Shown one piece after another: positions 24,281-29,538 of a stretch of DNA of 64,000 nucleotides. Source of the stretch: Cyanobacteria bacterium P01_D01_bin.156 (GTDB taxonomy: Bacteria > Cyanobacteriota > Cyanobacteriia > Phormidesmidales > Phormidesmidaceae). Under the pieces are notes generated by a model. It saw only the letters and a program-made list of their open reading frames with translations, made no database searches and was not told the origin of the DNA. A program made the translations under genes and the position numbers. The stretch covers positions 1-64,000 of the forward strand of contig JBCCQQ010000033.1 in assembly GCA_039024555.1 (NCBI GenBank). The letters are read 5' to 3'. How positions within the stretch are numbered: the stretch's first letter is position 1; each line of letters starts with the position of its first letter.

Positions 24281-24496
24281 CTACGCCGCATAACCGAAGA
24301 GACTATCAAGGTACAGACTATTCACATGGGCATGATTAATACCATTCTGCATTAGAAAGAGAGAGAGGGCCGCTTGCATCATCCGCTCCTGGCTCCACAT
24401 TTCGTGGGTATCTAAATAATCCTGAATCGAGAGATATAGGGTTTCGGGAATTTCCACCATAAGACTAACAGTCGTCGGGCCTGTAACTGAGGGCAT
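24281..24496 (-). CDS. DUF2811 domain protein
   Basis: EIPETLY...YLDTH..WSQER...AALSLFLMQNG...YLDSLF. Confidence 0.8.
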   Translation of the reverse strand: MPSVTGPTTVSLMVEIPETLYLSIQDYLDTHEMWSQERMMQAALSLFLMQNGINHAHVNSLYLDSLFGYAA

Positions 24497-24762
24497 CGGC
24501 TATAAAGCTCCTTCAAGACATAAACGCAAAGCATTAGTGCCTCATAATTCTTCTGGCGCATTACGCAAACAACATTGGTAGCGGCATCCTGAAAGCAGAG
24601 CCAAGGGGAAGAACTAATCGGTCACATGGGTGGGTGTCACTTGGGTAAGTGGAGCTTTATTGTGCAGGACCACCTAAGAATTCGCAATACGCCCTACCCT
24701 TCAGACTTTTGTAATACTTTCAATGTGAATTACGAACTAATCAGGGCTCAGTCCTTTTTTTC

Positions 24763-24780
24763 GTTACGTCCAGTTACATC
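24763..24780. promoter_or_regulatory. HLR1-like (RpaB-type) direct repeat
   Basis: GTTACGTC-CA-GTTACATC, 10-bp period. Confidence 0.4.
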
Positions 24781-24798
24781 GCTGTTTTGATCCCCATC

Positions 24799-24904
24799 TG
24801 TACACAGTTTTCCACAGAAGCTCAAATTATCCCAAGATTTCGTTCATTTCTGGGGAGAACTCTGTTGAGTCTGTGGAAAACATGAGGAAATCTCTTGTGG
24901 AAAA
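24799..24904. promoter_or_regulatory. cluster of DnaA-box-like 9-mers
   Basis: TTTTCCACA at 24808-24816; TGTGGAAAA at 24872-24880 and 24896-24904; degenerate copies at 24827, 24851 and 24883. Confidence 0.65.
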
Positions 24905-25180
24905 CCTAGACTGATGTAAATAAATATTTTGTTGTTATAGCTATAGCTCTGAATAGAGTTTGTGAGTCCGCAGTCTTTACGCTGAGAGTGTTTGATTGAT
25001 TTGAATGACATTTACATATTCATTATCGTTAGTTCTTTAAGCTATGAAATGTTCTGATATATGGATTTTCCTGTCGTTGACGACTTGGAAAATATTTTTG
25101 CTTGTATGCCTCTGACCATCAATATTATGGCTGGCCGTTGAATGATGGTGAGTCCAGCCAATTCGACTAGCGCAATAAGA

Positions 25181-25214
25181 AGCCCCCATGAACGCAATTG
25201 TGCTCATGGGGGCT
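25181..25214. terminator. orphan GC-rich hairpin
   Basis: agcccccatga...tcatgggggct; followed by tcttatt on the minus strand. Confidence 0.55.
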
Positions 25215-25763
25215 CCGGTTTAGATATAAAGGGTTCTGCAATAAAGGGATCAGTCTAATGGGTAGGTGCAGATTTAGAAATAGGTCGTTATTCAATAAAG
25301 CGTTTTGTCTATGAGTCAACTATAGGCTGGGGTGATAGAGATGTCTCTAGTTAGGGCTGCTACCTAGAGTCTGCTCACATGAACATCAATTTTTGAGTGA
25401 TTGTGCGGATAGTCACAGCAAGGTGATGTAAATAGTTAGCTCTTAAATACTAGAGCACGCCATGCTAAGGCCTACTGCAAAGTGTGGATGCATAGATTTT
25501 CGCCTGTTGTACAAAGCGTTTATCGATTAAGTACAGCTTTGATATGTAGCCAATCGGCTGTAAGTTTGGCTATTTGATGTCAAAGATTGATTAGACCGCA
25601 TAGCATACAGCACAAATTGTTTTATCTGTGACTTTCGAATACACACATCAATAAGGGAGTCTTCAGTCAAGTTGCTGAAAATAATGTGGTTACTGCTACC
25701 AACCTATCCAAATCCATTTATACATAGACAACAACTTTAAACTATTTTGGCAATTAACATTGC

Positions 25764-25813
25764 TGCTTTTGCTTAGCTTTATCTGTAATCTCCGAAACTT
25801 CCTAGATGATTTA
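25764..25813 (+). repeat. duplicated upstream element, copy 1
   Basis: tgcttttgcttagcttta-N19-cctagatgattta; same blocks and spacing as 26341-26390. Confidence 0.85.
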
Positions 25814-25876
25814 GCGGAGAGAGATTGATGTAATAAATACAACTACTATTTAATAGTAACTGACAAGATTCTTGTT

Positions 25877-26059
25877 ATGTATACCAATCAACCATCTTCT
25901 CCAAGTAATAGAACATCTTCTCCATCAGAGCACTCATCTCAGGCTCTTTGGCAGCTGCTCACAGTTTTCCAACAGAAAATGACCAAGGGTGGATATCGCC
26001 ACAGTAGGATTCCTACTAATCAGCGACCCATTTATATTCGTGGTGGATATACAGGGTGA
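25877..26059 (+). CDS. putative double-glycine-leader peptide precursor 1 (60 aa)
   Basis: EHSSQALWQLLTVFQQKMTKGG followed by YRHSRIPTNQRPIYIRGGYTG; paralogous to 26448-26597. Confidence 0.6.
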   Translation: MYTNQPSSPSNRTSSPSEHSSQALWQLLTVFQQKMTKGGYRHSRIPTNQRPIYIRGGYTG

Positions 26060-26340
26060 TGGGGCCTTACTATTAGCTAGTCAGGCCTAGAGACTTAAAT
26101 GATGTTTTGAGGTACTGCTGAACCTCAGAATGATTTTATCTACAAGATATTGCTATCTCAAACATATTTTTTTCAGATTGTCGTATGTAAGGCTTAATTG
26201 TTTCGTCATAACTGAGAAACAATTAAGATGGTTATATGGCTTCAACCAAATGTCCTATATTCACGAGTGTATTAATATGAATTTGGCTGGACTATCAATA
26301 TAGTGATAACAGCTTTATGATAGTGGGCTCATGACATGAT

Positions 26341-26390
26341 TGCTTTTGCTTAGCTTTACATATAGGTTCCATATTTCCCTAGATGATTTA
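26341..26390 (+). repeat. duplicated upstream element, copy 2
   Basis: tgcttttgcttagcttta-N19-cctagatgattta. Confidence 0.85.
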
Positions 26391-26447
26391 TTGAAGAGTT
26401 ATTGTTTTACTGAGTATGTTAGATTCTTCCTCGTGAGATTTTTTGAA

Positions 26448-26597
26448 ATGCATAATCATCAATTCACTTCTCAAATAGAGAACTCATCTCAACTTCTTTG
26501 GAAACCCCTTACAGTTTCTCAACAGGAAGCTACAACAGGTGGCTGCTGCTGGCAAAGATATTGGGATGCTATGTTGAACTATTTTCGTCGTGGTTAG
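26448..26597 (+). CDS. putative double-glycine-leader peptide precursor 2 (49 aa)
   Basis: MHNHQFTSQIENSSQLLWKPLTVSQQEATTGG followed by CCWQRYWDAMLNYFRRG; start moved to ATG 26448 by alignment with precursor 1. Confidence 0.65.
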   Translation: MHNHQFTSQIENSSQLLWKPLTVSQQEATTGGCCWQRYWDAMLNYFRRG

Positions 26598-26603
26598 TTA
26601 TTA

Positions 26604-26628
26604 TATATCTACTGAACCCAGTAGATAT
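26604..26628 (+). terminator. hairpin after precursor 2 (coordinates approximate)
   Basis: atatctactg-aacc-cagtagatat. Confidence 0.5.
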
Positions 26629-26835
26629 GGCTTGATTCTTGTCTAAACAATTTCCAGCATTTGAACTACATCCTATTTAGAACCTTAAGAAGGCCACAAA
26701 TGGATTAGCCATATAGCTTTAACGTCCCTGTGGTTGTATGGAACCCTCCATGCAACCCTTAATTTTTTGATGTTCTATTGCTATGCAAGGGCACTTTAGG
26801 TACGAGTGTCGATCTAGGTACTAACCCTGAAACTA

Positions 26836-29538
26836 ATGCTATTTTACAAAGCCCATTCTAAATGGTGGGCATGTCTTAGTTCGCTAGGCATGTTGGCTAC
26901 GGTTACACCTGTTTATGCTCAAGCGACTCAGGTAGCTGGGGATGGTACCGTTGGTACTTTGGTTAATACTGACCTCTCTACTGCCTGTACCACGGGTGTT
27001 TGTTCTGTTACCGGCGGCACTCAAGTTGGCAACAGTCTTTTTCATAGTTTTGATCAGTTTTCTATCGAAGATGGTGATGAGGTTCGGTTTGACAATACTG
27101 GTGTTGAGACCATTTTTAGTCGAGTGACTGGCGGCAGTTCTTCAATAGATGGTTTAATTGGGACTGCTACAACAACTTCCACGGATATTTTTCTACTCAA
27201 TCCTCAAGGGATTCTCTTTGGTCCTAATGCCACACTTAATGTTAACGGTTCTTTTCTAACAAGCACTGCTGATAGCATCATTTTTGATAACGGGTCAAGC
27301 TTTAGTGCCAGTGCCCCAAACCAAATGAGTGGTTTACTAAGCATTAGTACTCCAGTAGGGTTGCAATATGGAAATAACCCCGGAAGTATTAATATACAAG
27401 GCCCTGGACATCAGCTCACCCTATTTCCTTCATTTGAGTTTAACCGAACTAATCGTCCTGATGGACTACGGGTCAATAGTGGCGAAACCCTTGCGCTTTT
27501 GGGTGGCCCCATTACCCTCGACGGTGGTAATGTAACAGCCTTTGGTGGTCACGTAGAGTTAGCTAGCGTAGGGGGCAACAGTGTTATTGGTATTCAACAA
27601 ACATCCTCTGGCTGGGAGTTTGACTATGATCAAGCAACCAATCTACAAGATATCTCCTTCAACAATGCTAGCTCTGTTGACGTTAGCGATGTCGATGGTG
27701 GTTCTGTAAGTGTACAGGCTAGCGACTTATCTCTACTGGATGGTTCTGTAATTGTTGCTAATCTCCAAGGCTCAGGAACTAGCGGTGGCATTGATATTGA
27801 AGCTGAGAGTATTCTGGTGCAAGATCAAGCTGGCTCGGTCAAAAGTGGCTTATACAGTGATGTTGAATTTTTGGGAACAGGTCAGGGAGGAAACCTCAAT
27901 ATCCAAACACAGCAGCTATCTGTTCTAAATGCAGGTGAATTAACTGCCAATAACTATTGGGAGGGAGATGCAGGAAATATCAATGTACAAGCCGATCAGA
28001 TCACAATGACTGGAGATAGCTTTATTGTCTCATTTGGTGATTTCTTTGCATCGGGAGACACTGGCAACGTAACCATTAAAGCAAACATCATTGATTTGAG
28101 AGATGGGGCACAAATTGCGACCACAAATTTCGGTTCTGGCACCACGGGAATTATGCAGGTTACTGCAGAGCAGTTGTTTTTTCAGGGTGTTAGTTCAGAT
28201 GGCTTTACTCAGAGTGGTTTAGAGTCTCTTGGAGCTAATAGTAATGGTGGAACAATTCTTGTTAATGCTGATACGATTCAGCTGTTGGATGGTGGACTGA
28301 TCTCAGCCAGCACTTTTGGAAGTGCTTCTGGAGGAGATGTTACTATTAATGCTAATAGCCTTGAGGCGATTGGAGGCACTTCCAATGGTAGTCCAAGTGG
28401 CGTTCTCAGCTCCGTACTACAGGGCGCTACAGGCAATGGTGGAAATGTTTTGTTAATAGTGGATCAGCTGCAGTTAGCTGATGGCGCTAATGTTGGAGTA
28501 AACACCTTTGGGGATGGTAATGCAGGCAGCCTAGCTATCAATTCCGAGACAATTGATCTGGTCGGAGTAGCTGCAGAGGGACGTACGGCAATTCTGGCCA
28601 ATGCGATTTTAGGAAATGGCAATGGTGGCAATATTGATATTAGTGCACAACAAGTTAATATTCGTGATGGTGCAACAATTACTGTGGGTAACTTCCAAAC
28701 CTTAGGATTATTCCCGCCAGGGCAGGGCTCTCCCGGTAATATCGTAATTGTTGCAGACGGGCTTTCTCTTCAAAATGATGCCACTATTGTGGCAGATACA
28801 TTAGCTGCTGATAACAATCTTGGCAATATTGTATTGAATGTAGATACCCTGACTCTGCAGCAGGAAAGTCGCATTAGCACTAATGCTCAAGGTAGTTCTA
28901 TGGGGGGCAATATTATGATCGATGCGATCGCACTAGTGGCGAAAGATAATAGCGATATTTCTGCCAATGCCCAGCAGGGGGTAGGTGGCCGCATTGTTAT
29001 CAATGCAAGCCAGATTTTTGGGACTGAATTTCGTTCGGAACTGACGCCTGATAACGATATCACTGCCAGTTCTGAACTCGGTCATACTTTTAACGGGACT
29101 GTGGAGCTCAACACTTCCTACGTTGAACCTACCCAAGGCATTACAACCCTGCCTACTGCCACCGTGGATAATGAACAGCAAGTAGCTCGCAAATGTTCTA
29201 TTGATGATGCCAATTCCCTGGTGGTTACCGGTCGTGGTGGCGTGGCCCAAAACCCAACCCAAGCTCTGCAAGTAAACAACAATAATAATATTTGGACTGA
29301 CCGTCGGCTTGCTTCTTCGCCTATATCGTCAGGCAGCTCGCCATCAGAATTAACTGATGATTCAGAAGATGCCCCAGGGCAAGCTTCAACCGACACTCCC
29401 GCAGTACCTCACTTAGTGGAAGCACAAGCACTCGTAACAGCAAATGGACAGATACAGTTAGTTACGTCAACCCCAACAGAAACAGACACCCTAAATCTGC
29501 TGGCCTGTGGAGTGCCTCAATCTAGTGACTCAATCTGA
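26836..29538 (+). CDS. filamentous haemagglutinin N-terminal domain exoprotein (TpsA-like beta-helix)
   Basis: Signal peptide, LFHSFDQF, FLLNPQGILFGPNA TPS motif, G(N/D)(A/G)G(N/D)I repeats, C-terminal TGRGG...VEAQ. Confidence 0.9.
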   Translation: MLFYKAHSKWWACLSSLGMLATVTPVYAQATQVAGDGTVGTLVNTDLSTACTTGVCSVTGGTQVGNSLFHSFDQFSIEDGDEVRFDNTGVETIFSRVTGGSSSIDGLIGTATTTSTDIFLLNPQGILFGPNATLNVNGSFLTSTADSIIFDNGSSFSASAPNQMSGLLSISTPVGLQYGNNPGSINIQGPGHQLTLFPSFEFNRTNRPDGLRVNSGETLALLGGPITLDGGNVTAFGGHVELASVGGNSVIGIQQTSSGWEFDYDQATNLQDISFNNASSVDVSDVDGGSVSVQASDLSLLDGSVIVANLQGSGTSGGIDIEAESILVQDQAGSVKSGLYSDVEFLGTGQGGNLNIQTQQLSVLNAGELTANNYWEGDAGNINVQADQITMTGDSFIVSFGDFFASGDTGNVTIKANIIDLRDGAQIATTNFGSGTTGIMQVTAEQLFFQGVSSDGFTQSGLESLGANSNGGTILVNADTIQLLDGGLISASTFGSASGGDVTINANSLEAIGGTSNGSPSGVLSSVLQGATGNGGNVLLIVDQLQLADGANVGVNTFGDGNAGSLAINSETIDLVGVAAEGRTAILANAILGNGNGGNIDISAQQVNIRDGATITVGNFQTLGLFPPGQGSPGNIVIVADGLSLQNDATIVADTLAADNNLGNIVLNVDTLTLQQESRISTNAQGSSMGGNIMIDAIALVAKDNSDISANAQQGVGGRIVINASQIFGTEFRSELTPDNDITASSELGHTFNGTVELNTSYVEPTQGITTLPTATVDNEQQVARKCSIDDANSLVVTGRGGVAQNPTQALQVNNNNNIWTDRRLASSPISSGSSPSELTDDSEDAPGQASTDTPAVPHLVEAQALVTANGQIQLVTSTPTETDTLNLLACGVPQSSDSI

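Follow-up and report, generated by a model that had tools for sequence, protein, structure and literature searches.

A dispersed family of double-glycine leader peptides in a marine, Leptothoe-like cyanobacterium, with a candidate C39 exporter and a TpsA-type gene next door

INTRODUCTION

Double-glycine (GG) leader peptides are widespread in cyanobacteria, and in the portion of the literature available to us a tested function was found for the EbfG set alone. EbfG1-4 are presented in the accessible text of two reports as biofilm proteins, not antibiotics (PMC4997328, PMC9981879). The precursors collected by Wang, Fewer and Sivonen in 2011 range from 28 to 164 aa and include NHLP and Nif11 types, and distant stand-alone precursors are acknowledged there (PMC3140520, available parts); no mention of a haemagglutinin- or hemagglutinin-type neighbor was found in the accessible main text of that paper. 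Genes of the CTB family are mentioned only as phosphate regulated in the available part of PMC9846622. Glu-8 and Leu-7 are named, in the available text of PMC6363468, as recognition residues of the canonical leader motif.

The window studied here, meaning the whole 64,000-nucleotide stretch analyzed (positions 1 to 64,000 of contig JBCCQQ010000033.1 of Cyanobacteria bacterium P01_D01_bin.156), contains two small tandem ORFs with GG leaders. The original prediction treated them as an isolated orphan pair. Instead, they proved to be two of the 24 copies of a family for which there are a candidate exporter, common upstream elements, and a link to a gene of the two-partner secretion (TPS) type.

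RESULTS

Two precursor genes and their flanking elements

Both ORFs were recovered on the plus strand with the leaders and cores originally quoted for them. ORF1 (25877-26059; ORF call and leader alignment) encodes a 60-aa precursor, with the leader recognition part at 25946-25993 and a predicted 21-aa core at 25994-26056. ORF2 (26448-26597; ORF call and an ortholog in the relative G013) encodes a 49-aa precursor, with the recognition part at 26496-26543 and a predicted 17-aa core at 26544-26594. The calculated monoisotopic masses of the unmodified cores are 2504.31 Da for ORF1 and 2267.00 Da for ORF2, and a disulfide would lower them by 2.02. Neither was matched in Pfam or NCBIfam. Comparison of the two precursors gave a local score of 71 that none of 5,000 shuffles reached (shuffle maximum, 49), and this likeness was located in the leader; the score of the cores alone was reached by 545 of 5,000 shuffles and is not significant. 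The shared leader was therefore upheld, and the cores, which had been called unrelated, were not significantly alike, yet both carry Y-(I/F)-R-(G/R)-G near the end. The suspicion that the listed upstream start of ORF2 was wrong was also borne out, as the TTG of that long frame, at 26340, falls inside the upstream element of this gene. With the ATG at 26448 as the start, the element lies 62 nt away, compared with 52 to 68 nt among the other copies, and the resulting 49 aa resembles the 48 aa of the ortholog. Both ORFs are real precursor genes.

Each ORF is preceded on the plus strand by a conserved upstream element, a putative regulator-binding or promoter site, found with an nhmmer profile: at 25758-25815 for ORF1 (core at 25777-25808, 68 nt ahead of the ATG) and at 26333-26390 for ORF2 (core at 26354-26385, 62 nt ahead of the ATG). 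The element of ORF2 was evident from the DNA duplication as well, which extends beyond the ORFs to include the element; a hairpin then follows each copy. These terminator-like hairpins lie 3' of ORF1 (26103-26132) and ORF2 (26604-26629), and a third hairpin (26732-26757) lies between ORF2 and the TPS gene, which suggests that the peptide genes and the TPS gene are on separate transcripts. All three came from a hairpin search of the plus strand, compared with 0.8 +/- 0.9 in shuffles. The profile was built from six copies (group A, below); its next-best match elsewhere in the genome had an E value of only 2.7, and it gave nine matches in 6 of 10 relatives' loci outside its training set. The element was not found at the eight distant loci examined. 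Its spacing is fixed, it contains short direct repeats that lie about 10 to 12 nt apart, and no sigma-70-like site was found there on the plus strand. Noncoding RNA was discarded as an explanation, Rfam having given no match at an E value of ≤0.1 over 24400-26900, and three metagenome matches from an exact-pattern scan, none ahead of a family peptide, were read as chance.

Two further observations concern the surroundings. A dispersed intergenic repeat, which contains an inverted repeat near 25181-25214, occupies 25170-25330 of the window; it has several copies in this genome and is found in most genomes of the genus. A GGDEF gene is present at the syntenic position of G013 and absent from the window.

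A 24-member family at 16 loci

A leader hidden Markov model (HMM) was seeded with six regex matches, among them both window ORFs, and settled at 22 ORFs with E values of ≤1.8e-6 (best reversed decoy, 5.6). Two borderline ORFs (E values of 0.24 and 0.85) were added on the basis of a full LW-x12-GG leader and the common core motif; a candidate on contig C35 and a match to the CTB model on C31 failed the family HMM and were excluded. The genome under study (G000) thereby holds 24 family genes at 16 loci, the window pair included, and the leader is conserved in relatives, so that the search originally proposed did uncover more copies with variable cores. Precursors are 44 to 65 aa long, with an LW-x12-GG leader and cores of 17 to 38 aa that are mostly cationic and aromatic. 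Net charge is at least +1 in 22 of the 24 cores; relative to background, the cores of this genome and its relatives contain 3.0x W, 2.8x Y, 1.7x R, and 0.11x E. The leader ends in GG in 23 members, both window ORFs among them, and in AG in one. Trp-15 and an L, I, or V at position -12 occur in 24/24 leaders, V, I, L, or M at position -4 in 21/24, Glu-6 in 20/24, and Gln-8 in 18/24; the canonical Glu-8 and Leu-7 each occur in 0/24. The window pair carries Thr-4, which is frequent among the group-A copies of relatives, and ORF1 is off the family consensus at three leader positions: Leu-13 (for Pro), Phe-9, and Lys-6 (for Glu).

Two groups were distinguished. Group A comprises six copies, including the window pair, that have one common upstream element and RG-containing cores; R-(R/G)-G or RG, a motif picked post hoc, is present in all six and also in each of the four copies that G013 has at the corresponding locus. 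Group B comprises 18 copies, most with another upstream region in common, and 16 of the 18 cores contain [WFY]-C-x-x-T (examples at L004:6428-7768, L011:5672-7094, and L015:5918-6668). Written out more fully, the motif of these 16 cores is [WFY]-C-x-x-T-[KRG]-[KR]; it contains one conserved Cys and could serve in dimerization, metal binding, or receptor contact. Three upstream cassettes, all of the group-B type, have no peptide ORF behind them (C14:41693-41574, C50:2122-2234, and C7:66765-66686), from which we infer birth-and-death turnover. The empty C7 cassette sits ahead of a long ORF resembling a PAS-type sensor gene.

Membership in described precursor families was rejected. Four of the 24 members matched the leader part of the CTB model NF038167 weakly (best E value, 0.0026), none reached its 32-bit cutoff (best, 16.3 bits), and the window pair gave no match. 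The best match to this model in the genome, yet also below the cutoff, is a separate small GG-leader ORF on C31 (L123, C31:29900-29959), whose leader is of the canonical E-L type and whose core repeats a motif in tandem. No Nif11 or NHLP leader was detected among the 24 members with Pfam and NCBIfam models, which removed those two assignments, and the single Nif11 match of the genome lies elsewhere, on C16. Pfam bacteriocin families likewise gave no match among family members.

Copies in relatives and selection

The family gave 36 matches in a representative library, two of them false (P0032 and P0035, repeat proteins that matched by chance and were dropped), and 15 in a larger protein collection, where the named ones are all "hypothetical protein." A metagenome scan with the group-B alignment returned 65 pattern matches, of which tblastn confirmed none. 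Four family peptides are encoded in the L. kymatousa record (L051); for that draft, about 72% complete, no bacteriocin cluster is reported in the available text of PMC8225149. Two peptides of relatives, at L043:7349-7522 (G021) and L045:9084-9272 (G020), differ from all others in having Tyr-rich cores (7/14 and 10/16 Tyr) and two Cys.

The syntenic site of G013 carries four copies, compared with two in the window. The G013 ortholog of ORF2 keeps the CCW start and the RRG end of the core, and the likeness between the two cores was reached by 2 of 5,000 shuffles. Over 19 codons, ORF2 and this ortholog gave a pS of 0.70 and a pN of 0.07; the corresponding values for the TPS gene over 884 codons were 0.69 and 0.16. 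By this measure ORF2 is under purifying selection. Across 276 paralog pairs, leaders gave a pS of 0.68 and a pN of 0.29, and the leader of ORF1 had a pN below its pS in 6/6 comparisons with relatives' copies. Judged from its leader, ORF1 is the weaker member of the pair.

A candidate exporter

The original prediction held that the precursors are processed in trans by a C39 peptidase-ABC transporter. This is supported, and none of the refuting conditions that could be examined in sequence spoke against it. Five C39-domain proteins were found in the genome, three of which keep the catalytic Cys and His: one on C46, an NHLP-type protein on C77, and a 714-aa peptidase-ABC transporter on C49 (C49:25528-27672) with an HlyD partner. 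No GG precursor lies within 10 kb of the C49 transporter. In G016, G018, G020, and one G021 locus, family peptides are flanked on one side by a divergently transcribed C39 transporter and on the other by the ortholog of the window's TPS gene; HlyD follows the transporter in the three complete loci, and the G018 transporter is cut by the contig end. The C49 protein is the best match to all three complete transporters (74 to 78% identity) and forms with them a 100/100 clade in a 15-row tree. The synteny in relatives thus matches an orphan transporter, without a GG precursor within 10 kb, to orphan substrates, and the genome-wide look for a C39 transporter with HlyD that had been proposed ended in a candidate whose orthologs flank such peptides. 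Six distant loci picked by weak peptide match (6/7 such matches, from four other genera and G017; a G019 match inside a 325-aa frame was left out) have a C39 transporter 24 to 1,678 bp away in 6/6 cases. Among two loci picked by transporter match, one has such a peptide and the other ends at a contig edge.

When the C39 domain of the C49 protein was modeled together with the ORF2 precursor, the complex scored 0.84, compared with 0.02 for the best of three controls; the mark used for such scores was reached by 116/157 solved complexes and 2/215 mismatched pairs, counts that are approximate with the alignments used. At least 91% of contacts were the same between runs, and the partner pLDDT was at least 63. 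The modeled interface joins the regions of catalytic Cys14 and His90 to peptide residues 16 to 34, with the lowest-error contacts made by Trp-15 and Leu-12. As similar complexes are already solved, the model speaks for likeness, not binding. The C49 protein is most likely the exporter and the clear candidate, with the C46 protein as one alternative. Some findings stand against export. In the assembly of G013, which has nine family peptides, the sole C39-like protein seen is 996 aa long and no transporter of the short type was found; this may reflect incompleteness, since the genome is 75% complete and also lacks a genus-core SPASM gene. In addition, none of the 24 leaders has Glu-8 or Leu-7, and ORF1 has three nonconsensus leader changes. 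Taking synteny, tree, and model together, we consider it very probable that the peptides are cleaved after GG and exported.

Several features near C39 transporters were recorded separately. A second C39 transporter on C49 (L007:5957-8230) is convergent with the first and keeps the Cys, with Arg replacing the catalytic His; most genomes of the genus have close homologs of it, 46 to 48% identical to the 714-aa protein. On the upstream side of the 714-aa transporter, the TPS gene (L007:13957-16544) seems split into frames of 688 and 111 aa. Distant LW..GG precursors lie directly upstream of C39 transporters at L146:8523-8870 (minus strand, G228), L147:151-453 (plus, G270), and L150:6373-6573 (minus, G017); their cores begin with a hydrophobic LLLPAVQAAREA stretch, and each locus has a second GG peptide downstream of HlyD. 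Such a start may be akin to the N-terminal, pilin-like helix of planctomycete DUF1559 proteins.

Search for modifying enzymes

No YcaO gene was found in the genome (the search control was positive in 5/14 genomes), and no LanM or LanC gene, by a search that is weak as its controls were positive nowhere. The single SPASM radical-SAM gene, on C55, lies 1.3 kb from two group-B peptides. It is present in 20/22 genomes of the genus at 86 to 92% identity and also in other families; as a genus-core gene that does not track the peptides, it was rejected as the family maturase. This gene belongs to no named family (L010:3211-5450); the gene after it encodes a low-complexity protein of 362 aa that has a cold-shock domain at its C terminus. 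No enzyme recurred near the peptide and transporter loci of this genome, where the neighbors are mostly housekeeping (Pfam, 123/162 ORFs). A dedicated maturase adjacent to the peptides or codistributed with them was not found, in a search that covered known enzyme families. As no maturase tracks the peptides, the cores would be unmodified apart from possible disulfides, and unmodified peptides are likelier than ribosomally synthesized, modified ones (RiPPs), the reading originally put forward.

The TPS gene next door

The gene at 26836-29538 (plus strand) encodes a 900-aa TpsA-type protein, assigned by PF05860, TIGR01901, fold, and synteny, and is a conserved partner of the peptides. Its model (pLDDT, 79.7) has a signal-peptide-like N terminus, a TPS domain, a long beta-helix, and a low-confidence tail; the best fold matches were EtpA, HxuA, and HMW1 (E values of 1.2e-8 to 3e-6). 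The nearest named records are from Leptothoe and Leptolyngbyaceae, for which reason the genome is termed Leptothoe-like. TpsB-type pores are present in the genome, together with 22 TPS-like genes.

In a set of 49 TPS loci from species-representative genomes, all six with at least 50% identity have one to four family peptides directly upstream (these six repeat known loci and are not extra), compared with 0/43 of the more distant loci within 8 kb. Peptides and the TPS ortholog are found in the same 6 of 22 genomes of the genus; several of the genomes that lack both are incomplete. The six fall in at least three parts of the genus tree, and their monophyly was rejected (AU P value of 3.5e-7; two-gene tree, IQ-TREE, with 2,000 replicates, flagged by the program as few). 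The peptide-plus-TPS block occurs in three different neighborhoods, two of them without a transporter. In G000, 3 of 16 peptide loci adjoin three different TPS paralogs, compared with 10 of 1,277 gaps that are TPS flanked (P value of 1.8e-4; 4.4e-3 without the window). The remaining 13 loci have no TPS neighbor, and the seven distant transporter-linked peptide loci have no TPS gene in the stretch covered. A functional tie is suggested, and no more than suggested, since linkage can explain joint loss and since these 13 loci and the distant loci lack a TPS gene.

DISCUSSION

Each gene can be read as a self-contained cassette of upstream element, precursor ORF, and terminator, with transcription presumably starting from the element. 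The leader would then be recognized by the C39 domain of an ABC transporter that carries a peptidase, and Trp-15 would give it an additional anchor; the transporter is most likely the C49 protein with HlyD, the C46 protein being the alternative. A cut after Gly-Gly would let the 21-aa or 17-aa core exit by the type I secretion route, probably unmodified, with disulfides possible. The two window cores would belong to a repertoire with fast turnover, made up of 24 peptides that are short, cationic, and aromatic. Once released, they may inhibit neighboring bacteria in a mat or biofilm, as microcins or class II bacteriocins do. Core composition and birth-and-death evolution point to this competitive role; export and this role together we predict tentatively, at not quite an even chance. 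It leaves the TPS link unexplained, and EbfG1-4, the cyanobacterial GG proteins with a tested function, are biofilm proteins; as to an immunity-sized ORF beside the pair, no other ORF of at least 60 aa lies between 24496 and 26836.

The peptides travel with an adhesin-like surface gene, a hint that they may serve competition or the building of mats. As a third option next to the antimicrobial and signaling roles first proposed, the same export could instead deliver cores that act at the surface or matrix with the TpsA beta-helix, in adhesion, filament bundling, or self-recognition. This EbfG1-4-like function fits that precedent (PMC4997328, PMC9981879, as far as available), the 6/6 close versus 0/43 more distant TPS loci with peptides, the shared and nonmonophyletic distribution in 6 of 22 genomes, the block in three neighborhoods (two without a transporter), the 3/16 loci beside TPS paralogs (P value of 1.8e-4), and a fold like that of the adhesins EtpA and HMW1. 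We nevertheless regard it as rather unlikely: 13/16 loci in G000 and the seven distant transporter-linked loci have no TPS gene, linked genes can move and vanish jointly even when they are not tied by function, hairpins stand between the peptide genes and the TPS gene, and the cores, at 2 to 4 kDa and highly charged, differ from mature EbfG of 6 to 7 kDa. Cores of 14 to 38 aa would also suit ComC-like pheromones read by a sensor kinase, with the upstream element (fixed spacing, short direct repeats, no plus-strand sigma-70-like site) as a response-regulator site, and the nearest ESM Atlas clusters to ORF2 are ComC precursors, a lead only, with a score of 0.88 (<0.9) that is probably leader driven. 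Signaling of this kind is improbable, no cognate membrane sensor kinase having been seen beside the window pair or between relatives' peptides and the transporter; moreover, 24 divergent cores per genome are unusual for a pheromone system.

Decay of the pair, or at least of ORF1, into leftover cassettes with a broken exporter link would account for the three off-consensus leader positions of ORF1, for two copies here against four at the syntenic G013 locus, for the empty cassettes in the genome, and for the missing short-type transporter of G013. It is very unlikely given the pS of 0.70 and pN of 0.07 of ORF2 and its conserved core (2/5,000 shuffles), an ORF1 leader with a pN below its pS against all six relatives' copies, and the intact upstream elements, frames, terminators, and C49 transporter. 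Equally at issue is whether the cores are true RiPPs, modified in trans by an unrecognized enzyme and then exported. The [WFY]-C-x-x-T motif of 16/24 cores, mostly followed by K or R, could be a cross-linking motif, and two peptides that bear it are only 1.3 kb away from the sole SPASM radical-SAM gene of the genome. The window pair lacks the motif, however, the SPASM gene occurs in 20/22 genomes of the genus and in other families without tracking the peptides, and YcaO, LanM, and LanC were not found, nor did the scanned loci of this genome share a recurring enzyme, which together make modification very unlikely.

A broader proposal, to which we give a low probability, is a two-route extracellular module in which TpsA leaves by two-partner secretion and the variable peptides by the C39/type I route, with one dedicated element, for joint extracellular action. 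In this proposal the peptides would be displayed, captured, or read by TpsA, which would provide the filament with a variable code for identity or adhesion; in this strain, the peptide side would have grown into a dispersed library of 24 genes. Such a module was not found in the literature searched. If the TpsA link is functional, it would give a role to one group of unexplained haemagglutinin-domain proteins in filamentous cyanobacteria. Apart from that link, one genome offers 24 synthesizable 17- to 38-mers together with a candidate transporter, and the noncanonical leader, with Trp-15 and no Leu-7, probes the recognition rules of C39 domains. With no Pfam or NCBIfam model, dispersed copies would probably be missed by cluster-based mining.

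Judged from sequence, the family is one of unannotated, probably secreted cyanobacterial double-glycine peptides whose leader and TpsA association differ from those of described systems. No description of the LW-x12-GG leader, the C-x-x-T group, or the TPS link was found in the literature, in a search that covered main texts and few subscription papers. The clusters of Wang, Fewer, and Sivonen resemble it in having a C39 transporter, HlyD, and variable GG precursors (PMC3140520, available parts); unlike them, the family shows neither a Nif11 nor an NHLP leader, and LanM was not found. The CTB family bacteriocins (NF038167) are likewise cyanobacterial tandem GG precursors, with a model 72 positions long, compared with the 44- to 65-aa precursors here. 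With microcins and class II bacteriocins the family shares a GG leader, a hydrophobic position -12, and a mostly hydrophobic position -4 (PMC6363468, in part), and, as predicted, export of small unmodified cargo by transporters that tolerate diverse cargo (PMC6363468, PMC10231218, available parts); it differs in lacking Glu-8 and Leu-7 and in its invariant Trp-15 and a Glu-6, and no candidate immunity ORF of 60 aa or more was found beside the window pair. The EbfG1-4/PteB system of Synechococcus elongatus PCC 7942, as described in the available text of its reports, also combines tandem small GG-leader genes with a C39 peptidase-ABC transporter and HlyD, and has no maturase and cores without homologs (PMC4997328, PMC9981879). 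Its precursors are 9 to 10 kDa with cores of 6 to 7 kDa and lie in one operon with pteB (same reports, in part), whereas the family described here has 2- to 4-kDa cationic cores at 16 loci, mostly in separate cassettes and often beside a TPS gene.
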